From: Squalus acanthias | Taxonomy: Eukaryota | Assembly: GCA_030390025.1 (NCBI GenBank) | Contig: CM059432.1 | Span: forward strand, 18,540,001-18,604,000 | Reading direction: 5' to 3' | DNA: 64,000 bases | In this document: positions 2,298-30,092 of the stretch, one piece after another | Layout: the number at the start of each line of letters is the position of its first letter | Numbering within the stretch: the stretch's first letter is position 1 | Program-made: the position numbers and the translations under genes | Notes under the pieces: generated by a model | What the model was told of the DNA's origin: nothing | Databases searched by the model: none | What the model saw: the letters and a program-made list of their open reading frames with translations, nothing else

Positions 2298-2548
2298 GAC
2301 CTGAGGCAACATGATGAAAAAGTGTTTTACACAGCAAGTTGTTAGGATCTGGAATGCACTGCCTGAAAGGGCGGAGGAAGCAGATTAAATAATAAAGGGA
2401 ATTAGATAAATACTTGCAAAGGAGAAATTTGCAGGGCTATGGGTAAGAGCAGGGGAGTGGGACGAATTGGATAGCTGTTTCAAAGAGCCGGCACAGGCAT
2501 GATGGGCCGAATGGCCTCCTTCTGTGCTGTATCATTCTATGATTCTAT
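2298..2548 (+). mobile_element. CR1 LINE 3' end
   Basis: GATCTGGAATGCACTGCCTGAAAGG...GGGCCGAATGGCCTCCTTCTGTGCTG followed by an (ATTCTATG)n tail. Confidence 0.8.
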
Positions 2549-3428
2549 GGGGGAGAAATTCAGTATCGCCCCATTTGGGGCGCAATTATCGGCCGGGCGC
2601 AAAGATTAGCGCCTGGCACTAATTATCGCCACCGACTGCAAACTTGACTTTTATCGCCCCTGGAGGTGATTGGAGCGCTAAATCAGGCGCTTCACACCTG
2701 TCTTAAGGCGCAAAGGCCGAGGAGCGAGGCGCTACCTCAGAGCGCTGGCGAAGCTCATGTAATGTCAGTCAGCAATGGAACACACACACAATGGCATGGG
2801 CCAGGTCTTAAAGGGGATGGTTAATCTCACTTTCCATCCACATCCTGCTAATTGCAGCCTTGAATCTCGGCCTGGAGAGACCTGCACATCAAATCTGCTG
2901 GAAAGAACAATGGAGAGTACCAGGCAAAGAGCTCAGAGTGCAGCCCCCACAGTCTCTTCTAAATCGATACAAGGAATGGCAAATAAAAATGAACCTGCAA
3001 AGTGCTGCTCAGTACCCAAAACTCCTTCACACAACGTTGAAACTCTCCAGAAGTCTCTCTCTCTCTCTCTCAGAATGCATAGTTCAAAAATGGCACCAAC
3101 AATAAAAGGCAGGAAGCGGTCACCTTTAAATAGCGCTCCCCCTTTCCCTTCATGACTGCAGAACGCTCCACTCAAAGTGTCGTTGCTAGCGTCAGGCGGT
3201 AAGGCAGGGGGCGCCACTCAATATCCGCTCCGGGGCGATACTGGGGCATTGCGCACTCGACTGACATCACGATCTGCCAGTGCAGGAGATCGTGGCGGTA
3301 GTGTTTAGCGCCGCCGCAAAATGTCTAGTTAATTTCGCGAGCGGCGCAAACTTCGCCGCGCCTGGGCGCTAGATGCTTTGCGCCCCATTAGCGCCCTCTT
3401 AAGGCGCTACCAACTGAATTTTTCCCCC
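2549..3428. mobile_element. PIF/Harbinger-type MITE, family H1
   Basis: TIRs GGGGGAGAAATTCAGT / ACTGAATTTTTCCCCC with 3-bp TSD TAT. Homologous copies at 23056, 36636 and 41486. Confidence 0.85.
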
Positions 3429-4184: not shown

Positions 4185-4653
4185 AAAAGAAAGAAAGACT
4201 TGCATTTCTACAGCGCCTTTCATGACCACCGGACATCCTAAAGCGCTTTACAGCCAATGAAGTACCTTTGGAAGTGTAGTCACTGTTGCAATGTAGGAAA
4301 CACGGCAGCCAATTTGCGCACAGCAAGCTCCCACAAACAGCAATGTGAGAATGACCAGATAATCTGTTTTAATGATGTTGATTGAGGGATAAATATTGGA
4401 CAGGACACCGGGGAGAACTCCCCTGCTGTTCTTCAAAATAGAGCCACAGGACCATATTACATCCACCTGCGAGGGCAAATGGGGCCTAGGTTTAATGTCT
4501 CATCCGAAAGATGGCACTTCCAACAGTGCAGCACTCCCTCAGTACTGCACTTGAGTGTCAGCCTAGATTTTTGTGCTCTGGTCTCTGGAGTGGGACTTGA
4601 ACCCACGACCTTCTGACTCAGAGTTAAGGGTGCTACCCACTGAGCCATGGCTG
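4185..4653 (-). mobile_element. DeuSINE (SacSINE1-like)
   Basis: Full-length copy homologous to 572-1041. Confidence 0.85.
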
Positions 4654-7591: not shown

Positions 7592-8551
7592 CTAGGGATC
7601 AGCAGTGTCTTCTGCTGAATAGCTGTTTCCATAGTTAACAAATAGTCTTGCTTCACATGTGGTGTTCCACTGTGTTAGGTTGAAATCCTAGGCTATGCTT
7701 GTTACAGGGGCAGTACATTTCCATTCCCGACTGCAATACTACACCTAATGTGCTGTGGTGGTGCAATTGGTGTCCTGCCTGAGTTACTGCAGGAAACCAG
7801 TGGAATCCATGTGGAATCTCTGCCCCAATAACTTTTTCATTCGATAGCGTGTTGACATTTTTATCTGATGTTACTCATTATATCAATTCTGGTTTCTAGT
7901 TACTAATTGTTTTGTCGGGCAGTTTGTGTAGCTGTAGCTCTTAAGAACATAAAAGGCATAACTTAAAACATCTAAAGCTATTACAACCATGCACAAAGCA
8001 TAAGATGAAAGGAATCTAGTTAGTCAACTAGAACACAAAACGTTAATTTCACCATGATATTCTTAGAGTACAATATAAATGGCATACTGAGCACTGCAAA
8101 CCTAATATTACAATCTCGCTCTGATAATGTATAAGATTATTCATGGCATACATAGATTATAATAGATGGTTTACAGTCAGTTACAAGGCAGTAATTCAGT
8201 TGAGGGGGCTGATGACATAAACTCTGCTCAAATGGTTTATGACTATCCAGAAGACTGAATTACTGCCTCAAAATCAGCACCAGGCATTTACCTATAGTCT
8301 ATCTTTATGCTTACATTTTGTATTCATTGTGCAGTAAGTGAAGTACAGGCAATGTGGATGGAGGCGAAAGGGTAATAAACCTGATAATAACATGGGAGTA
8401 AGAAATGTCAGATTTGTTTTAAATGAATTCTTCATCTATGGACGAATTCCAGACTCCATCAACCTGCTTCAGCAATCTCTAACATATGAAGCAGTCAGCA
8501 AAGTGTGTGTTATGAAGAAACTCAAAGTATTAGATGCATATCCATGGCCAC

Positions 8552-8745
8552 TGTCGTAAGAATGAGCCTTACGCGTGGTGAACTTAAAGTAAGCTTTAAT
8601 CAACTAAAAAGGTGCTACATACAAAAGAGGTCTTACTCTATGCCTCTCCAGGATCCAACTGATCAGTCCAGTATTTATCCTGGACTAATCACAGGAAGTG
8701 ATGCAATAAAGTTCGAGTCACAGGAAGCTGTATTGTGTTACCACA
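8552..8745 (-). repeat. 3' LTR of the Gypsy element
   Basis: No difference seen from 12799-12992. Confidence 0.97.
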
Positions 8746-8757
8746 TTCTCCCCCCCC
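8746..8757 (-). promoter_or_regulatory. Polypurine tract
   Basis: GGGGGGGGAGAA immediately 5' of the 3' LTR on the element strand. Confidence 0.9.
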
Positions 8758-8763
8758 AAAAGA

Positions 8764-11700
8764 TTAGGAGGCCGGGTTGCTCCCTCCATTTCGTAGCCGC
8801 TGGATGAGGGAGAGCCGCACCCGTTTGGGTTCTCGTAGCGGTAGAGGGCCCCTAGCCCGTTTACCCGCCGCGGGCCGTGGACCAGAGTCCGAGTGATCCA
8901 GCCCGCTCTGTGAGGGGTCAGGACGATCCTGACTGTGTACTGGTGCCCGAACAGGTGTCGGGCAGGGCTGTGGCAGATCCGTTTCCGAGCGTACGGTACG
9001 GTGTGGATCGTGGCTGCGCGTGCGAGCCCCGACGGGCTCATAGTCAGTCTGCCCCAGGTCGGCACGCTGGAGTGAGGTACCAGCCGGCGTCAGATCCAGA
9101 TCGTGATGAGAGGCACCTGGCAAGCCCAGAGATGTGCCTGGTACAATATCATCCCCTGGTGTCCCTCTATGTTTCGGCGGGCAGGGAGCCAGATCCCGCA
9201 ATGACACGGTAGATTCCCGACCGTCAGGATACCGAATATAGGCGTAGGTAGGGTTGACGTCAGTGAGCTCAACCTCATCTACCAGGGGGTCATTCTTAGA
9301 CGCCTGGACATATCTTCGGAGTAGCACTGGTCCCGGTGCAGTCAGCCACGACGGGAGAGATATCCCATAGGATGAGCGACGCTGAAATCGGAAGAACCGT
9401 TCATGAGGCGTCGTATTTGTGGCGGTCGAAAGGAGGGACCGTGTGGAGTGTAATGCGTCTGGAAGTACTGCTTCCCATTGCTGGTTGGGTAGGCCCCGAG
9501 ATCTCAAAGCCAGACGTACCGCATTCCAGATGATAGCGTTATAACGCTCGACTTGCCCATTCCCGACCGAATGATAAGGCGTCGTTTTGCTGGCAGCAAT
9601 ACCCCGTTCCGAGAGATAGGCCTTGAGTTCTCCTGACATAAAAGAAGGGCCCCGATCCGAATGAACATAGGATGCCATGCCACAGAAAGCAAATACCTGC
9701 TCAAGGCAGCTGATAACCGTGGTCGTCAGCATATTGGGGCAGGGAAAGGCAAACGGAAAACGGGAATACTCATCGACCATGGTCAATAGATAAGTGTTGC
9801 GAGTTGAAGAGGGCAACGGCCCCTTAACATCGATGCTAAGCCGTTGCATTGGCTGGGTCGCATGTATGAGTATACCACCCGAGGGGCGGAAAAACTGAGG
9901 TTTCAATTCCGCACAGACTCTGCAGTCTGAGCACATCTTCTTTACATCCCCGGTAGAGAATGCGAAATTTCGGGACCGCACGAAGTGTAGCATGCGAGTA
10001 ACGCCCGGATGACACAACCCATCATGGATGTCTACGAGCGTAGAGGGTGCCATGGCGGAGCAGAATGCTCGTGTGAGGGTATCCGGAGCCACATTCTCCT
10101 TGCCAGGTCGATAGTGGATGGTGTAACCAAAAGAGGCCAATTCCAGCCGCCAAAGCTGGATTTTATTATTTTTAATTTTGGTCCGTTTTCGATTATTGAG
10201 CATGAAGGCGACCGATCGCTGGTCCGTGATTAAGGTAAAGTGCTGGCGAGCTAGGAGATGACTCCACTTCCGTACTGCCTCTATGATGGCTGTAGCTTCT
10301 TTCTCGACTGGAGGATAATGTAGCTCAGCCCCTTGAAAAGTCCTGGACAAAAATGCCACCGGACGACCTTCCTGATTCAGAGTGGCCGAGATCGCCACCT
10401 CCGAGGCATCACACTCAACAACAAAAGGAAGACTCTCATCGATGGAGTGAAGAGCCGCTTTCTCCAACTGTTTTTTCAGGAGGTTAAAGGCTGCAACAGC
10501 CGCTGTGTCTAGTGGGAATGTGCTGGCCTTCAGTAGAGGTTGGATTCGGTCCGAGAAGTTAGGAATCCATTTAGCATAGTATGCAAACAGGCCGAGGGCC
10601 CGGCGCAAGGAGGCCGGATTCTTAGGTGGCGGGAGTTCTTGGAGTGGGCGAAGCCTTTCAGGGTCAGGTTTAATGATGCCATTGCCCACACAATAGCCAA
10701 GGATGTTGATGGTTGGTTGTGACTCAATGGATTTAGCCGCATTTAATGTCAAATTACGGTGCTGGAGTGCATCCCAAAATCGTTGGAGATTGGCGTCATG
10801 TTCCCGCTGATTGCGACCTGCGACAGTAATATTGTCCAGATAAGGAAACGTATCCTTCAAGTCTTCCTGTTTGACCAGGTCATCCATTGTTCGCTGGAAG
10901 ACAGCCACTCCATTAGTGACCCCAAAGGGGAGGCGACGAAATTGATACAGCCGTCCATTGGCTTCAAAGGCCGTATACTGCTTGTCTGAGACCTTCAAGG
11001 GTACCTGATGATAGGCACTTTTCAGATCATATGTTGAGAACACCGTGTACTCAGCCAGTTTATTAACCATATCATCGATGCGCGGCAATGGGTATGCGTC
11101 CAAGTCCGTATATTGATTGATAGTCTGTGAATAGTCAATGCACAGCCGTTTCTTGTGAGGTTGTAGAGGGTTCTTAACAATAACGACCTGGGCGCGCCAT
11201 GGCGACGAATAAGGCTCGATGATATCCTCTGCTAAAAGCCGAGAAATCTCAGCCGCAATAAAAGACTGGTCTTCCTGACTGAAACGTCGTGACTTTGTTA
11301 TAATCGGTTTGCATCGAGGAGGGATACTGGTAAACAGTGAGGGTTCATCCAGTGAAGCTGCTGACAATGCACAGAACGGTAATCGAGGTAGTATATTAGA
11401 AATAGTGAGTTCAGGTTTGGATCCGCCGAACTCAATGGTGAGCTTCTTATGCTGCTTTTGAAAATCCAGCCCTAAGATAAGATCACTACATAAGTCCTTG
11501 AGCACCGAAAGCCGGGTGGAGGGATACCTGTGACCATTAAGTGTTATTTCAACCATACAAAAGCCAGAAATTCTGGTATTAAGTGATGACTGAGCCATCG
11601 CAATTGCCTGGTCCGATGGGAAAACATGTAGCTTTAACTCTGCAACAATCTGTTCCCTAATGAAACTATCAGTGCTACCTGAGTCAATTAAGGCATCTAA

Positions 11701-12720
11701 AGTATGTCCATTAATTGATTCTTTTGTAGCTGCATGGAATAGGTTCTGAGGACAAGCAGCTGTAATTGGTGTCGTTGCACAAAGAGTGGCTGAAACTCTA
11801 GGTGTGTTTCTTCGAGAGGAAACCCAAGAGGAAGCACGATAGATTTTAGCCGGAACATCTTGACAGGCCCTTACCGGGGCAGTTCGGTAGGACTTTGCTT
11901 GATAAGCCCTCGTAGAGGCTCTTGATAGGGTCATTTTGCAAAGGTTTGCCTTTTTGTTGCAATGACTGCAAAACGCATTGCGAGCAGGGCAGAATTTCCG
12001 AGGGTGAAACTCATCACCACAAAAGAAGCATTTCTTAGATTGCCAAGAGGCTGCCACAGTGGGGTCATCATCCTCTTCATCAGTGAAGTCATCAGATTGA
12101 TCGTCAGGGATAAAGACCTCCCTAATAGAGTTCACCTGTGGCCTCTTAAATTGCCTGACTGTAGTTAAGGCAGTAGACCGAGGTCTGGGCACTGTATAAA
12201 GGTCTGCATTTCTTTTTGCCAGATCTAGAGAGCAAGCCATGTCATAAGCTCTCTGAAGCTCAAGTGTCTTACTTTCCAGTAGACGCTGGCGTATAAATGG
12301 GGAGGCAAGCCCGCAGATGATAGCATCATGGATCATTTCTTCACGGTACAGCTCAGCTGAGGCCGCCTGAAAGTTACAGTCCATACTAAGTCTGCGAAGC
12401 TCTTGGAGGAATTTATCAATGGATTCCTCCGGCCCTTGTTGTGCTGTAGCTAGATGATGTCTGGCATAGACCTCATTCGGTGTCTTAGTATATAGTCTCT
12501 TAAGCGTCCGAATTGCCTCCTCGTAACTGCCCCATTCCTCCACATACTGAAATACATTCGGGGTGACACAGTTGATGAGTATCCGCAACTTTGAGTCATC
12601 ATCAGCCTTGCAATATTCAAGAAAATTGTCAAACGTGCGATACCAGTGTTTCCACACCTTACCGGCTGCTGGGGTGTTTGGGTCCAAGTCAAGACGCGAT
12701 GGTTTAAGGATGTTTTCCAT
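8764..12720 (-). CDS. gag-pol: Gag-Pol polyprotein, 1318 aa
   Basis: CCHC knuckle CFFCGDEFHPRKFC, protease LIDSGS, RT YDLKSAYHQ/LPFG/YLDN, RNase H CDAS...EKEA...TDQ, integrase HHCC plus D(SID)-D(SDRG)-E(VERYN). Uninterrupted; no chromodomain recognised. Confidence 0.97.
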   Translation of the reverse strand: MENILKPSRLDLDPNTPAAGKVWKHWYRTFDNFLEYCKADDDSKLRILINCVTPNVFQYVEEWGSYEEAIRTLKRLYTKTPNEVYARHHLATAQQGPEESIDKFLQELRRLSMDCNFQAASAELYREEMIHDAIICGLASPFIRQRLLESKTLELQRAYDMACSLDLAKRNADLYTVPRPRSTALTTVRQFKRPQVNSIREVFIPDDQSDDFTDEEDDDPTVAASWQSKKCFFCGDEFHPRKFCPARNAFCSHCNKKANLCKMTLSRASTRAYQAKSYRTAPVRACQDVPAKIYRASSWVSSRRNTPRVSATLCATTPITAACPQNLFHAATKESINGHTLDALIDSGSTDSFIREQIVAELKLHVFPSDQAIAMAQSSLNTRISGFCMVEITLNGHRYPSTRLSVLKDLCSDLILGLDFQKQHKKLTIEFGGSKPELTISNILPRLPFCALSAASLDEPSLFTSIPPRCKPIITKSRRFSQEDQSFIAAEISRLLAEDIIEPYSSPWRAQVVIVKNPLQPHKKRLCIDYSQTINQYTDLDAYPLPRIDDMVNKLAEYTVFSTYDLKSAYHQVPLKVSDKQYTAFEANGRLYQFRRLPFGVTNGVAVFQRTMDDLVKQEDLKDTFPYLDNITVAGRNQREHDANLQRFWDALQHRNLTLNAAKSIESQPTINILGYCVGNGIIKPDPERLRPLQELPPPKNPASLRRALGLFAYYAKWIPNFSDRIQPLLKASTFPLDTAAVAAFNLLKKQLEKAALHSIDESLPFVVECDASEVAISATLNQEGRPVAFLSRTFQGAELHYPPVEKEATAIIEAVRKWSHLLARQHFTLITDQRSVAFMLNNRKRTKIKNNKIQLWRLELASFGYTIHYRPGKENVAPDTLTRAFCSAMAPSTLVDIHDGLCHPGVTRMLHFVRSRNFAFSTGDVKKMCSDCRVCAELKPQFFRPSGGILIHATQPMQRLSIDVKGPLPSSTRNTYLLTMVDEYSRFPFAFPCPNMLTTTVISCLEQVFAFCGMASYVHSDRGPSFMSGELKAYLSERGIAASKTTPYHSVGNGQVERYNAIIWNAVRLALRSRGLPNQQWEAVLPDALHSTRSLLSTATNTTPHERFFRFQRRSSYGISLPSWLTAPGPVLLRRYVQASKNDPLVDEVELTDVNPTYAYIRYPDGRESTVSLRDLAPCPPKHRGTPGDDIVPGTSLGLPGASHHDLDLTPAGTSLQRADLGQTDYEPVGARTRSHDPHRTVRSETDLPQPCPTPVRAPVHSQDRPDPSQSGLDHSDSGPRPAAGKRARGPLPLREPKRVRLSLIQRLRNGGSNPAS

Positions 12721-12786
12721 GATGGGTGATTCCCTGGATCCTTAGTTCCGAGTTCGTCCAAAAAGTTTGAGTGCGAAGTTTTTCAA

Positions 12787-12797
12787 AGTTGATTAAA
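12787..12797 (-). promoter_or_regulatory. Non-tRNA primer-binding site, putatively self-priming
   Basis: TTTAATCAACT lies 1 nt downstream of the 5' LTR, has no TGG start, and is complementary to AGTTGATTAAA in the LTR (12842-12852). Confidence 0.75.
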
Positions 12798-12798
12798 T

Positions 12799-12992
12799 TG
12801 TCGTAAGAATGAGCCTTACGCGTGGTGAACTTAAAGTAAGCTTTAATCAACTAAAAAGGTGCTACATACAAAAGAGGTCTTACTCTATGCCTCTCCAGGA
12901 TCCAACTGATCAGTCCAGTATTTATCCTGGACTAATCACAGGAAGTGATGCAATAAAGTTCGAGTCACAGGAAGCTGTATTGTGTTACCACA
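12799..12992 (-). repeat. 5' LTR of the Gypsy element
   Basis: Element strand has a TATA-like GATAAATA, poly(A) signal ATTAAA and TG...CA ends. Confidence 0.97.
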
Positions 12993-14412
12993 GCCACCCA
13001 CTCAACTTTGACATCACGCATGGGGGCCAATTTGTCGCGCCATTTTTGGGTGGAATATGGCGGTAACCTGCTGAAAATCGTGGGCAGCACTTACCGCCCC
13101 TTTCCCGCTGATTAACGGTCTGCCGCCATTTTGGTGGGGGCCTTCATATGGGTGGCCCAGCCACCAACCAAAAACAGGCAGGCACCTTATTAGCCCATGT
13201 CCTGTGCTGTACATAGGAAGGTGATGGAATTTTTGGGCTTCCACTGTATGGAGCATGTACTGCGCAGCTAAAAAAAAAAATTCTCAGGAGGCAGCCGCCC
13301 TGACAATCCCCCTCCGAACTGAGACTGAGAGGAAACCTTTAATGCTCATCTTAAGTTTTGGTGCTTGTTGGAAATCAAGGGCCAGAGGTGCACGGTTTCC
13401 TGACTTGTACAGCGGGGTGCTGAGGCAGAAAGACTCCCCCTTTAAATGTCGTTAGTTCTGAGGTCAGCGGGTTATCATGTTCTCTTTGGAATAAAATGGC
13501 AGAGATTCTGCAACTCTATTTGCAGCACACTGATGTAAAGATACCCCTGTATGAATCAGAACTTGCAGGTGCAACGATCCCATCTCTTCACAGAGCAGCG
13601 AGAGGAGGTGTGAGTTCGCAAGTCTCCAACTCAATTTGAGGAATCCAAGCCCTGTTTCACCTCTGCCTAAAATCCCTGGCTCTTCTGTGGGTCTGTCTGT
13701 CCCAAGCTTCACTTTTCCTTTATTTTAAAAGCAACCTGTCCACTTAACCAATGACTGACTGTACGGAAGTCCAGGTCTTACCCTTTAACTTTCATCATAT
13801 ATTTCTACGTCTAATTACTGTCAATGAAGTGTGTTCCTTAATTGTTGTTACTGCCTTTAATCTTCTTTATTTCAATGAAAACATACACAGTCTGTCAGAC
13901 TGTGCAGGTTACTTAACCTTTGATACCATTATATGTTATTAATAAAGCTTAATTGTGAACTCTCCTTAAAAAATTCCCTGATTCCATGTTCTTTGTAATA
14001 AAGTGATCTGCGAACAATTCTGCAGTTATGCACCAGTCTTGATGAATTATCATTAATTAGCTCGCTGATTTATTTTTGAAACAATCATTACTTCAAATAC
14101 TGGTAAGCGACTGATATAAGAAACCTGCTCACTGTTGGAATATTTTACATCAGATAATCTCTAAAGAATTAATGGATGCCCCCTACACCCCCCGCCCGCC
14201 CCCTCTCACTCCCAACATAGAGTAATATTCAACTTAGCCTTTGTCTTTCTAATGATTCATTACAGTAGCTCAGCTGGTAGCACTCTTGCCTCTGAGTCCG
14301 TAGATTGTAAGTTCCTGCTCCATATGAAGAGATAGAGCTTATAGTCTAGATTGACATTACAATGTAGTGCTGAGGGAATGCTGCATTCTTGTGAATGTTA
14401 AACTGAGACCCG

Positions 14413-21446: not shown

Positions 21447-21905
21447 AGCTGTGGCTCAGTGGGTAGCACACTTCGCCTCTGAGTCAGAAGGTTGTGGGTT
21501 TAAGTCCCACTCCAGGGACTTGAGCACATAAAAAAAAATCTAGGCTGACACTCCAGTGCAGTGCTGAGGGAGTGCTGCACTGTCGGAGGTGCCGTCTTTC
21601 GGATGAGACATTAAACCGAGAGAGTCTGCCCTCTCTCGAGTGGCCGTAAAAGATCTCATGGCACTATTTTGAATAAGAACAGGGGAGTTATCCCTGGTGT
21701 CCTGGCCAATATTTATCCCTTAATCAACATAAGAAAAACAGATTATCTGGTCATTTTCACATTGCTGTTTGTGGGAGCTTGCTGCCGCGTTTCCCACATT
21801 ACAACAGTGACTACACTCCAAAAGTACTTCATTGGCTGTAAAGCACTTTGAGACGTGCAGTGGTCGTGAAAGGCGCTATATAAATGCAAGTCTTTCTTTT
21901 TTTTT
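21447..21905 (+). mobile_element. DeuSINE (SacSINE1-like)
   Basis: GTGGCTCAGTGGGTAGC head and GGCGCTATATAAATGCAAGTCTTTC tail. Confidence 0.85.
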
Positions 21906-22159: not shown

Positions 22160-22380
22160 TGGTGGTTAGGATCTGGAATGCACTGCCTGGGAGGGTGGTG
22201 GAGGCAGACTCAATCGTGGCTTTCAAAATTGGATAAGTACCTGAAGGAAAAGATTTTGCAGGGCTACGGGGAAAGGGCGGGGGTGTGGGACTAGCTGGTG
22301 TGCTCTTGCAGAGAGCTGGCACGGGCTCGAGGGGCCGAATGGCCTCCTTCTGTGCTGTAACCATTCTATGATTCTATGAT
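22160..22380 (+). mobile_element. CR1 LINE 3' end
   Basis: WNALP remnant, 3' stem-loop and ATTCTATG tail. Confidence 0.8.
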
Positions 22381-23055
22381 ATTAGCGATTATTCTACAAA
22401 TTCATAATTTAGTGAATTCAGATGGTTAAAATTACGAAGGATTTGGGAGTTTTCAATATGGACTTTTAAAACTGAAGGAATGGACTAGAAATACAGAACT
22501 GTTCAGAAGAGATGCTGGGAAGCTTGACCAAGTTCGAAAGGTATCATGGGTTATTATGGCTTCAGAATGTTGAAGACTAACTGCTGTGTTCAGGAGACGT
22601 GATGTACTTTCACAGATATAAGGGCCAGTTTAAAGATTGCAACAGACAGTCGCCTGGCTAGACCTTGGAAGACACTGAGAAACTATCATACACAATAGCA
22701 AACTGTTTTTGCAGCAGCAAGAAAGTTATAAAGACAGCCATTTCGCAATAAGTTTGTGAGGCAAAGTTAACACATTTGTCGCACAAAACTTAAAAAAAAA
22801 TATTATTATGTTCTGTAGTTCAAGCAACTCTTTTGTTGTTAGCAGTTGAAACAGAAACTCAAATATTTAGGAGCCGGTCAGTGGATTTCAGGCGAGCTCG
22901 CTGCTTCAACAAACAACAAAAATCACAAGACAACACAAAGAAGGTGTCGACGAAGAATTAACCCCTCAGTCTCCCAAAACAGAAGAATAGAGCGTTCTGC
23001 GTTTTGTGTTGCACTACTGACTAAGGTTGTAAGCATCTCTATCTGTAAAACCATT

Positions 23056-23896
23056 GGGGGAAAAATTGGGTATCGCCCATTTTGGGGCGCTAATATTGGC
23101 CGGGCGCAAAGTTTAGCGCCCGACGCTAATTATTGCCTCCGACTGCAAAATTTGCCTCTAGCGCCCTTGGAGGTGATTTGAGCGCTAAATCAGGCGCTAC
23201 ACACCTCTCTTAAGGCGCTAATGTCAGGGAGCGAGGTGCTACCTCAGAACGCTACCAAAGCTCAGGCGATGACAGTTACCATGGAAGCCAGACAGACTGG
23301 CGCCGTCCAGTTCTTAAAGGGGAGGGGCCATCTTGCTGGCCAGCCACACCCTGATCATTGCAGCCTTGAATCTCGGCCTGGAGAGACCTCTAAAGTAATT
23401 GTGTTGGAAGCACTAATGGATAGGTCCAGGGAAAGAGCTCGGCGCTTAGGAACCTCAAAAGTGGTGCTGAGGGCCAAAACTCCTCAGGACAGCATTAAAT
23501 CTCTCCAGACGTCTCTCTCCCTCTCAACCTGCGTGTAGCAAAAGTTTTGCCGACAAGAAAAGGCAGGAAGCGCCTGCCTTTAAATAGCGCTCCCCCAGCC
23601 CCTTCCCGACTTGAAAACGTTCCCCTCTAACTGTCGTTCCTAGCGGCAGGCGCTAAGGCAGGGGGCGCGACTCAATATCCGGTCCGGGGCGCTACCGGGG
23701 CGTTGCATGCTCGACTGACGTCGCAATCTGCGGGCACAGGAGATCGTAGCGGTAGTGTTTAGCGCCGCCGCAAAACGACTGGTCAATTTCGCAAGCGCCG
23801 TTAAAATCGCCGGGCTCAGGCGCTACGTTCCTAGCGCCCCGTTAGCGCCCCCCAGAGGCACTAATGGGAGGCGCTAACCAACCGAATTTTTCCCCC
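23056..23896. mobile_element. Harbinger MITE, family H1 variant
   Basis: TIRs GGGGGAAAAATT / AATTTTTCCCCC; body homologous to 2549-3428; TSD imperfect. Confidence 0.8.
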
Positions 23897-25105: not shown

Positions 25106-25244
25106 CATCCACCTTGTCAAGACCCCTCAGGATCTTATATGTTTCAATCAAGTCACCTCTTACTCTTCTAAGCTCCAGCGGATACAGGCCTAGCCTGTCC
25201 AACCTTTCCTCATAAGACAACCCGCCCATTCCAGGTATTAGTCT

Positions 25245-25362
25245 TGATGCGGAGATGCCGGTGTTGGACTGGGGTGGACAAAAATGAGAAGTCGCACAAC
25301 ACCAGGTTATAGTCCAACAGTTTTATTTGAAATTACGAGCTTTTGGAGCTCTGCTCCTTCAT
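25245..25362 (-). mobile_element. Short Penelope family A pLTR insertion
   Basis: Matches the pLTR 3' part; TSD CAGGTATTAGTCT at 25232-25244 and 25363-25375. Hammerhead G12 is mutated to A. Confidence 0.85.
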
Positions 25363-27369
25363 CAGGTATTAGTCTAGTAAACCTTCTCTGAACTGCTTCC
25401 AACGCATTTACATCCTTTAGGTCAGACCCGGTGTAGTGAAGTTAATGAATCAGATTTCAAAATATTAACGTAGCAGTGACACAAATGAATAGTACAATAA
25501 AATGTCGTCCGAGTGAATGGATGCAAAAGCCATGTGTGGGTGTATCACAGCGGAGCAGAAGTAATTGGACAAGAGGGCGGGTCAGGAAGGCCACAGACGT
25601 AGGAGGCGCATAACTTGCTGCAAGTACCACCCCAGCTAATGGGGGCATCCTCAGAGATCAGTAGGAAGGGTCAGCCTTCCCCACTGCACGAGTGGCAGTG
25701 GAATTTAATTTCAAAGACACATGAGCCTTCCAGGCATCCAGAAGGGGTGATTCAGGAGTTAGCTACTTATCTTTTGGACAATCAGCACTTTCTTCACTGT
25801 GCAAAGAAAGATTCGCGGACTGCAAAATACAGTAAAGCAAATTAATTTTGTTTCAATTGTAATGATCTGTGGGCTTAATGTGTTTTGCTCATGTGTTTGC
25901 CATTTGTATGTCAGGAGCTTCTCTGTGTCAGGATATTCCCTGGTGATAAGTGCTCCCCTAATCGAAGGAGTACCAGCGAGAACAGCTGCAAAGCCAACTG
26001 GTGAGGTGCAGGGGTTACAGAAGAATCTGTACCTGCATCTGTGGCTAACTCTGATGTACTTGCATCAGTGCCAAGGGTCTCCTTTGCTGAAGTAGCTGTG
26101 GCCTCAGAGGCAGTGCCTACTTGTGCAGGGCTAAGAGACGGCATAGAGCTGCCACAGAGCTGAGTGCCAGTGCTCCGGTACAGGGCGTCTCCGATGTGTC
26201 TGAGCATAAAAAGATTCCTCACGCTTATCAAGCAAGTTGAAGGTGGCCATCACTGCATGTTGGAGTTTGAGCTCCAAAGACTCTATTGCAGCAGTGGAAG
26301 CCTTCATGGAAGGTATTCATTTTGGGTCGATGACTTACACAATGAGGCCTGCACTGCAGGTGCCTCTGGTGTTGCCACAAACTCAATGCAGTGCAAATGA
26401 CTCCTGCTCAATTGTATTAACCATGTGGAAGATGACATATCTGCATATCTGCACCCCCCCCCTCCCCCGCAACCCCCCATCCTTCCAGGCCGCCTTTCAG
26501 TGTAATATGCACGGAGACTAGTGACTTCTCAATATTGTCCTGCTCTTGTAAGAGACTCATTGCAATGCAAGACCACTAAGGGGTTTATTTTTGAGTTTTA
26601 TGCAAATATTTTCATTGTGTTCAGTGCTAAAGACAACTTCCATAAGTGAGTCCTCGTTCCCTACAAGCCCAAGCATGACCTTATACATGCAATATCTGGC
26701 ACTGCAGAGTGCCCAGAGGTCACACATAAAATCCCTTTACTGTAGTGGATATGTCGTAAACCCACTTATGACCTCTGAGACTTTAGAGAGCGGTAGAAAA
26801 AACACTCTATCAAACTGAGGCTTAGGTTATCAACTATGGAACATGTTTATTAAAAGCTGATAAACAGTAGCGAAGTCAAAACAACAATTTGCTCTATGTA
26901 CTTCCCCTGAAATGCAGAAAATGCTAAACAGATGTAACTCTTCCCTAATATTCTTATTAAGAATAATATTAAGTGGGGTGCTTTGCATATTCCCCATAAA
27001 TTGCTAACCTTGCCCTTGAAGGCCTTAATAGAACTGAGGTTCTGGGAACATGTTCCCTGAGATCTATCCTTGGTAATCTTTGAAGTTTGATTGGGCACAA
27101 AGGAGATCAAAAATGTATCTGTTAAAATCAAATAAAGCTAGAAATGAAACATATACTTAAAGAGGCAGAAGATGCCTGTAGTTTCTATCTAGATAAGCAT
27201 TAGAACCAAATCCACTTATGAACTGACTGCAAATTTCTTTAGTCTTAATTGACCACCTAGGAACAAAGCAAACAGCTATCAGATGATATCAATCCCAAAA
27301 ATTTGACCATTGAAATACATTCATATTAAAGCCCCACCTTGCCTCATAGCAACAACCTGCAGACACATG

Positions 27370-29636: not shown

Positions 29637-30092
29637 AGCTGTGGCTCAGTGGGTAGCACACTCACCTCTGAGTCAGAAGGTTGTGGGTTCAAGTCTCACT
29701 CCAGGGACTTGAGCACATAAAGCTAGGCTGACACTCCAGTGCAGTGCTGAGGGAGTGCTGCACTGTCAGAGGTGCCGTCTTTCAGATGAGACATTAAACC
29801 AAGGCCCCGTCTGCTCTCTCAGGTGGATGTGAAAGATCCTGTGGCACTATTTCGAAGAAGAGCAGGGGAGTTATCCCTGGTGTCCTGGTCAATATTTATC
29901 CCTCAACCAACATAACAAAAACAGATTATCTGGTCATTATCACATTGTGGGAGCTTGCTGTGTGCAAATTGGCTGCTGCATTTCCCACATTGCAACAGTA
30001 ACTCCACTTCAAAATAGTACTTCATTGGCTGTAAAGCACTTTGAGACGTCCGATGGTCGTGAAAGGCGCTTTATAAATGTAAGTCTTTCTTT
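29637..30092 (+). mobile_element. DeuSINE (SacSINE1-like)
   Basis: Full-length copy homologous to 21447-21905. Confidence 0.85.

Follow-up and report, generated by a model that had tools for sequence, protein, structure and literature searches.

The window analyzed here, a stretch of 64,000 nt of Squalus acanthias DNA, carries an intact Ty3/Gypsy LTR retrotransposon of 4,441 bp on its minus strand (8552–12992). Its features, all on the minus strand and listed from the 5' end of the element, are as follows:

12993–12997, minus strand: target-site duplication GTGGC, 5' side, identical to its twin at 8547–8551
12799–12992, minus strand: 5' LTR, 194 bp, TGTGG...ACGACA, with ACGACA ending at 12799
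12919–12925, minus strand: TATA-like ATAAATA, 73 nt upstream of the primer segment
12842–12852, minus strand: proposed self-primer AGTTGATTAAA in the 5' LTR (LTR positions 141–151), with the proposed cut after A12842
12842–12847, minus strand: ATTAAA hexamer, a putative poly(A) signal, which is the 3' end of the primer segment
12829–12841, minus strand: predicted hairpin GCUUA-CUU-UAAGU, opening at the first base past the proposed cut
12802–12820, minus strand: second predicted U5 hairpin of 7 bp, predicted for the window element only
12798, minus strand: spacer base A, the single base between the LTR end (CA) and the primer-binding site
12787–12797, minus strand: primer-binding site (PBS) TTTAATCAACT, the perfect complement of the LTR segment at 12852–12842
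12779–12786, minus strand: TTG bulge (12786–12784) and AAAAA (12783–12779), which could pair with TTTTT at 12857–12853, probably fortuitously
8764–12720, minus strand: single open reading frame of 1,318 codons encoding Gag, protease, RT, RNase H and integrase
8746–8757, minus strand: polypurine tract GGGGGGGGAGAA, adjoining the 3' LTR
8595–8605, minus strand: the same 11-mer, AGTTGATTAAA, in the 3' LTR
8552–8745, minus strand: 3' LTR, 194 bp
8547–8551, minus strand: target-site duplication GTGGC, 3' side, 5 bp with the same letters as the 5' copy

The length of 194 bp was assigned to the LTRs by reading and comparing their ends (a raw repeat search gave 201 nt), and the two LTRs are identical at 194 of 194 positions. 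The polyprotein matched the Pfam families PF00078, PF17917, PF17919, PF17921 and PF00665, and its best match in the PDB was the Ty3 Gag-Pol polyprotein (E = 7e-57). We placed the element in Ty3/Gypsy (Metaviridae) based on its domain order of protease, RT, RNase H and integrase, its RNase H of the Gypsy type, and the presence of both the zinc domain and the core of the integrase. The nearest protein clusters in a feature search were those named "K02A2.6-like." A single gag-pol frame is also found in Mag-family elements such as Jule.

The original prediction described an element without a chromodomain, and this description was borne out: Pfam returned no Chromo match in the window polyprotein at E values up to 0.01, and PF00385 (the chromodomain) was absent from all 120 homologs among the matches listed. 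Filing the element with the Tf1/sushi group of chromoviruses was rejected on the grounds of the missing chromodomain.

The element has almost no non-coding sequence: only 6 nt separate the stop codon of the polyprotein (8764–8766) from the polypurine tract, and 66 nt lie between the PBS and the start of gag. The first 30 kb of the window also contain several other pairs of dispersed repeats (576–963 and 4185–4576; 2441–3357 and 22269–23811; 21536–21764 and 29719–29947; 1223–1350 and 25241–25368). These pairs have 76–96% identity, are unrelated to the element, and are probably other interspersed repeats.

On the element strand the 5' LTR is followed by A-TTTAATCAACT-TTG-AAAAA, in every letter and coordinate as first described, and there is no TGG after the 5' LTR of the window element. 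The perfect pairing of this 11-mer with the LTR segment at 12852–12842 likewise holds. It is the position of the 11-mer that is unusual. When the LTR was shuffled with its dinucleotides preserved, 8 of 20,000 shuffles gave a perfect complement, at least 11 nt long, to bases starting 0–3 nt past the LTR; by number alone, occurrences of the 11-mer in the window are ordinary (three matches with one mismatch allowed, a number reached in 30 of 100 shuffles). The core helix is rich in A/U and has two G-C pairs in the window element.

Five further A-U pairs, following a 3-nt bulge, were also part of the original prediction. The letters for them are in place, with TTTTT (12857–12853) directly preceding the LTR 11-mer on the element strand. 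These pairs are absent in a sister family from the same host (see below), and across the family the pairing decays beyond ~13 bp; for this reason we read them as probably fortuitous in the window element and rejected them as part of the conserved structure.

Pairing of the primer-binding site with the LTR in related elements

Searches with the RT-integrase region identified 1,274 homologous proteins at E values up to 0.001 among 8,000 candidates scored. The 120 homologs among the matches listed have 54–88% identity, and the named sources of homologs include shrimp, whipworm, copepod, tunicate, soft coral, sea anemone, mussel and catshark. To obtain relatives with their flanking DNA, we scanned metagenome contigs with an alignment of 50 polyproteins; a relative is encoded by 314 of the 600 pattern matches, of which we retained the best 80. 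No relatives were found in the viral contig collection that was searched. There were 48 metagenome loci of at least 4.3 kb, 13 of which have a flanking repeat pair. Six metagenome contigs (L039, L041, L052, L059, L063 and L109) have a circularly permuted layout in which pol precedes the LTR and gag.

All 11 elements with a defined LTR pair have a perfect complement of the PBS, 11–17 nt long, in their own LTR, situated 20–55 nt before the LTR end. In 10 of these 11 a single base separates the LTR end from the PBS, and after the LTR end (...CA) and the spacer the PBS opens TTTA... in the 11 elements examined. The LTRs of the window family and its relatives are very short, at 141–231 bp. A second search, proceeding from the start of gag, found a perfect complement of at least 9 nt in the same layout at 21 of 28 loci. 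The seven loci where no complement of that length was found include one with only 36 nt of upstream sequence, three decayed copies that are recognizable but mutated (L087, L092 and L099), and three for which the position of gag may be wrong (L045, L082 and the second match in L070). No alternative PBS was found between the LTR and gag in the relatives, in most of which this distance is only 13–44 nt.

The original prediction proposed looking for compensatory changes between the PBS and the LTR in related families, and these are present. We aligned the window element with 16 distinct metagenome relatives (n = 17, ~40–72% protein identity) over a region that opens 20 nt ahead of the end of the LTR segment and closes 20 nt inside the PBS. 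In the core of 10 pairs, standard pairing is found in every one of the 169 cells that have letters (cells cannot be counted as independent, the 17 sequences being kin). Six of the 10 core positions vary on both sides, and several positions show three or four types of pair. The next two pairs beyond the core are kept in 16 and 15 of the 17 sequences, and those farther out in 7–13. When the helix is taken as 18 pairs, 86.6% of its cells are paired compared to 68.3 ± 1.8% in shuffles, with none of 500 shuffles reaching 86.6%, and sliding the partner by 1–3 columns reduces the paired cells to 26–48%. The covariation score was 0.502 vs. 0.166. The minimum-energy fold includes the helix in 17 of 17 sequences, and the length of the helix varies from 10 to 18 bp across the families.

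A PBS core, TTTAATCAAC, is common to 8 of the 17 families and to both families identified in the host, and the other nine families have a different PBS that is matched, in each case, by their own LTR. The finest comparison available is between elements of one LTR family in one assembly: L032 has a G>T change in both of its LTRs and a C>A change in its PBS, while L038 and L056 carry the other pair. L034, from the LTR family of L032, has a change in the PBS without compensation. To judge from the alignment, the pairing of the PBS with the LTR is a family trait that is kept while its letters change.

Copies and a sister family in the host genome

The 66-nt module that comprises the primer segment, U5 and the PBS is present in 1,539 exact copies in the host genome, and the reversed control gave none. 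All 40 LTR-PBS copies that were scored, out of 728 candidates, are 99–100% identical. Both arms of the helix are kept in 30 of 30 host copies that were fetched, 2 of which have a G inside the run of A residues (AAAAA) after the PBS. The window family is thus both enormous and young, and an element that has no tRNA site has multiplied very successfully. On contig C1, copies of the module occur at 566513, 570760 and 575007, each 4,247 nt apart. This spacing equals the length of the element minus one LTR and marks the copies as tandem arrays of elements that share LTRs.

A search with the catshark homolog identified a second family in the same host, with 68–70% protein identity to the window element. 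Forty-nine of its 51 scored matches are without a stop codon, and 31 of them lie in an open frame of 1,315 codons. At 10 of 10 loci that were fetched (L161–L170), CAAGTTGATTAAA is present in the LTR and TTTAATCAACTTG follows the LTR. These two segments form a helix of 13 bp with no pairing beyond it. The LTR of this sister family is 215 bp in length and has a TATAAATA box.

Proposed priming mechanism and its alternatives

On this comparative evidence, we consider self-primed reverse transcription, as shown for Tf1, to be well supported in this non-chromodomain lineage, based on the covarying pairing throughout the family, the 13-bp version of the helix in the sister family and the 1,539 copies of the module. 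The core of the original prediction, namely that priming relies on a segment of the element's own LTR and not on a tRNA, is strongly supported in that the LTR segment changes along with the PBS in relatives. The window element is very probably a recently inserted, intact copy of a very abundant non-chromodomain Ty3/Gypsy family which primes its minus-strand DNA with its own RNA.

We infer that priming would proceed as follows. In the genomic RNA the LTR-derived AGUUGAUUAAA (12852–12842) would fold back on the PBS, UUUAAUCAACU (12797–12787), and the RNase H of the element would cut after the last A (A12842), at the point where the helix abuts the small hairpin. The 3'-OH left by the cut would face the base that adjoins the LTR end, and its extension would copy 43 nt back to the cut, yielding a strong-stop DNA of 43–44 nt. 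In the first jump this short DNA would move to the 3' copy of the region from which it was made, with the stretch from the hexamer to the poly(A) site as the homology used. The PBS of the progeny would be partly re-copied from the primer; in retroviruses the progeny PBS is partly copied from the tRNA primer. Such copying would allow the pairing to stay perfect while its letters drift, which fits the case of L032. In 10 of the 11 elements with a defined LTR pair, the LTR segment pairs so that its 3' end lies against the opening base of the PBS, one base from the LTR end, which is the register that a primer would need. The primer of Tf1 is 11 nt, the same length as that proposed in the window element.

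Two positions can be envisaged for the primer in the transcript, and we lean, by a little, toward a primer that is internal to it. Both host families have a good TATA box upstream of the primer, at ~74 nt in the window family and 90 nt in the second family, and a block, TCCAGG..ATAAATACT, that contains it is common to the two. From these distances, transcripts are predicted to start ~40–60 nt ahead of the primer. The TATA blocks did not come into register when the two host LTRs were aligned globally. A difficulty for the internal-primer model is how plus-strand strong-stop synthesis would avoid copying the long 5' flap.

The other position, which we consider possible without favoring it, is exactly that of Tf1: the transcript would start at the first base of the complement, the primer would consist of the 11 nt at the 5' end of the RNA, and the hexamer would be silent beside the cap. 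This is mechanistically the simplest arrangement, as run-off copying of a short primer would regenerate the PBS, and the 11-mer opens with TTAGTT, which resembles an initiator motif. Consistent with this arrangement is the fact that 13 of the 15 LTRs examined have no such TATA box far upstream, and the range of helix lengths (10–18 bp) would reflect differing start sites. Against it are the retention by both host families of a good TATA box 74 and 90 nt upstream, within a shared block, the lack of a TATA box at -30 of the 11-mer in the window element, and the fact that many of the helices begin with T. No reads matched in a raw-read run of poly(A) RNA (X16) or in a metatranscriptome (X9), and two further runs (X1 and X5) contained only short unitig-like pieces that stop at LTR ends and look like DNA.

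Wherever in the RNA the primer lies, its 3' end shows one constant feature: the segment invariably ends ...AAA, and the bases after it are in most cases GCC or ACC. ATTAAA makes up the final six bases of this segment in 8 of the 17 sequences, and likewise in the second host family; AATAAA takes that place in another 3. The remaining six have GTTAAA (three families), TTTAAA, TTAAAA or AATTAA, and two of these (L033 and L037) have a canonical hexamer farther downstream. The proposal that the primer ends in a poly(A) hexamer therefore stands, as a matter of sequence, for 11 of the 17 families and the second host family; it does not extend to the six families that differ. Overlap of the primer and the hexamer is usual but not obligatory. 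We infer that ATTAAA acts as a poly(A) signal, and the suggestion in the original prediction that the helix could mask the copy of this signal at the 5' end is speculative. A pattern search of the genome for polyadenylated retrocopies of the element made by LINEs had no matches, and none of the metagenome loci ended in a poly(A) run or started near the PBS.

When the loop is folded by itself, 9 of the 17 sequences have a predicted compact hairpin (span 13–17 nt) that opens immediately past the cut; some stem is predicted within 3 nt of the cut in 14, and no stem in the other three. All are predictions from single sequences. Tf1 reportedly requires a stem-loop between its primer and PBS, of a kind similar to the U5-IR. 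The hairpin predicted after the cut in the window family, in single-sequence folds only, recalls that stem-loop. Directly after the proposed cut there is also a motif, (G/A)CCU(A)...(U)AGG(C/U), which in most families reads GCCUA...UAGGC, ACCUA...UAGGU or GCCU...AGGU and whose closing pair is G-C, A-U or G-U, differing by family.

The inclusion of the hexamer in the helix in 11 of the 17 families, and the hairpin that abuts the helix, raise the alternative that this is a structural or regulatory RNA involved in packaging, dimerization or occlusion of the 5' poly(A) signal, with priming occurring by another route. A helix that hides the hexamer resembles the poly(A) hairpins of retroviruses. 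We regard this alternative as improbable. One arm of the helix starts exactly one base past the LTR end in 10 of 11 elements, which is the register of a primer 3' end. Relatives have no other PBS between the LTR and gag, and a purely structural role would leave the element without a primer.

Priming by a host tRNA, a tRNA half or fragment, or another host RNA, with the complement in the LTR being incidental, is more improbable still. A conserved host primer would predict a conserved PBS, and the sharing of the core TTTAATCAAC by 8 of the 17 families and both host families is as expected from this. Yet nine families have other PBSs, each matched by its own LTR, and a host primer leaves unexplained the covarying partner within the LTR. 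The 3' end of a tRNA is excluded by the absence of TGG next to the LTR in all 17 aligned sequences. Among 26 distinct host tRNA genes, complementarity to the 33 nt at and around the LTR end and PBS reached 6 nt at most; this set represents two isoacceptor types only (Lys-UUU and Cys-GCA), which leaves some room for a host primer. These were the two top-scoring kinds in a search with the Rfam tRNA model, and a smaller extra sample added no others. There is no tRNA gene within the window. The tRNA-Lys(UUU) genes on contigs C2208, C29, C1484 and C1516 are in tandem arrays with a period of ~1.78 kb, and a cluster of tRNA-Cys genes is located at 8.13–8.37 Mb on contig C13.

Chance complementarity in A/T-rich sequence has a negligible probability and was rejected, despite the 11-mer having only two G or C residues and an ordinary count in the window with one mismatch allowed, based on the LTR shuffles (8 of 20,000 reaching 11 nt) and on covariation across the 17 sequences, in which 16 further families have the same architecture with different letters.

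Relation to known self-priming elements

To our knowledge, self-primed reverse transcription has been shown only for the Tf1-type elements of fission yeast, and elsewhere it is inferred, in chromovirus relatives and some plant lineages. The covariation described above is strong comparative evidence for self-priming in another lineage, one that is very widespread in animals. A single genome contains >1,500 near-identical copies of one member of this lineage, and their reading frames are intact.

In Tf1 and Tf2, according to published accounts, the self-primer in R anneals to the PBS and the RT/RNase H of the element itself severs it from the RNA, after which the short cDNA moves to the 3' end of the RNA; the same is proposed for Tj1 (PMC4600332, PMC5341516, PMC5006619). 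Like the window element, these elements of Schizosaccharomyces pombe (Tf1 and Tf2) and S. japonicus (Tj1) are described as having no tRNA PBS, but a PBS beside the 5' LTR that pairs with RNA derived from their own LTR (PMC4600332, PMC5341516). They differ in being fungal chromoviruses whose primer is the very 5' end of the mRNA. The window family, in contrast, has an animal host, no chromodomain and very short LTRs (141–231 bp). Its proposed primer, which may be an internal part of the transcript, has a poly(A)-type hexamer at its 3' end in most cases, and the family is known here from sequence.

Self-priming has also been reported or predicted for the Tf1/sushi group, up to vertebrates, for the Tcn1 clade of plants and for the TAR lineage of Copia elements (PMC6934838, PMC4600332, PMC6317226). 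As in the window family, the assignment in those lineages is derived from complementarity of the PBS with the LTR in the absence of a match to tRNA (PMC6317226; element list in PMC6934838). They are other lineages than the window family, being chromoviruses or Copia elements. Copia and other hemiviruses, in which priming is by a half-tRNA, resemble the window element in having a PBS without the TGG of the tRNA 3' end. Their PBS is stated to match an internal part of tRNA-Met or tRNA-Ile (PMC6317226), whereas the partner of the PBS in the window element is in its own LTR and covaries with it.

The window family may belong to the C-clade (SURL-like) of the Mag lineage, based on its short LTRs and on termini that are near the published motif, which is given as TGTNATRT...AYANAACA in the description of that clade (PMC3601003). 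Elements of the C-clade, which occur in marine metazoans and vertebrates, share with the window family the order PR-RT-RNase H-IN, short LTRs and termini of the TGT...ACA type (PMC3601003). The clade is recorded from molluscs, annelids, echinoderms and vertebrates (PMC6238403, PMC8220671), and this range of hosts agrees with the spread of the homologs of the window element. We found no literature that assigns self-priming to the Mag/SURL lineage; an earlier mention in the primary papers on SURL, Jule or Tf1 is possible.

A more extensive account can be put forward, which we regard as doubtful when taken as a whole. In this account an entire non-chromodomain Ty3/Gypsy lineage across animal phyla, probably the Mag C-clade, would do without a host primer and would use an internal piece of R that ends in the poly(A) hexamer. 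A single RNase H cut after the hexamer, at the junction of the helix and the hairpin, would free a long capped primer, the helix would hide the 5' poly(A) signal, the stretch from the hexamer to the poly(A) site would suffice for the first strand transfer, and self-priming would have originated independently of Tf1. If this account were true, freedom from host tRNAs and from silencing by tRNA fragments may have aided both the spread across phyla and the burst to >1,500 copies.

The 66-nt module offers a compact natural system for the question of how an RT/RNase H produces its own primer by recognizing and cutting an RNA duplex. The link that it makes between the priming site and a putative poly(A) signal is relevant to how the 5' copy of that signal is kept silent in LTR elements. 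In addition, elements that have no need of a tRNA would be expected to escape defenses aimed at tRNA primer sites (compare PMC7472051).

The protein of the window element has 54–76% identity over 651 residues to proteins of shrimp, whipworm, copepod, tunicate, cnidarian and mussel. DNA near-identical to the element (0.5–0.77 of the words sampled) was also found in sequencing runs, among X1–X15, that bear five different organism labels. The protein identity across phyla and the near-identical DNA under five labels could each reflect either horizontal transfer or very close relatives of the host.
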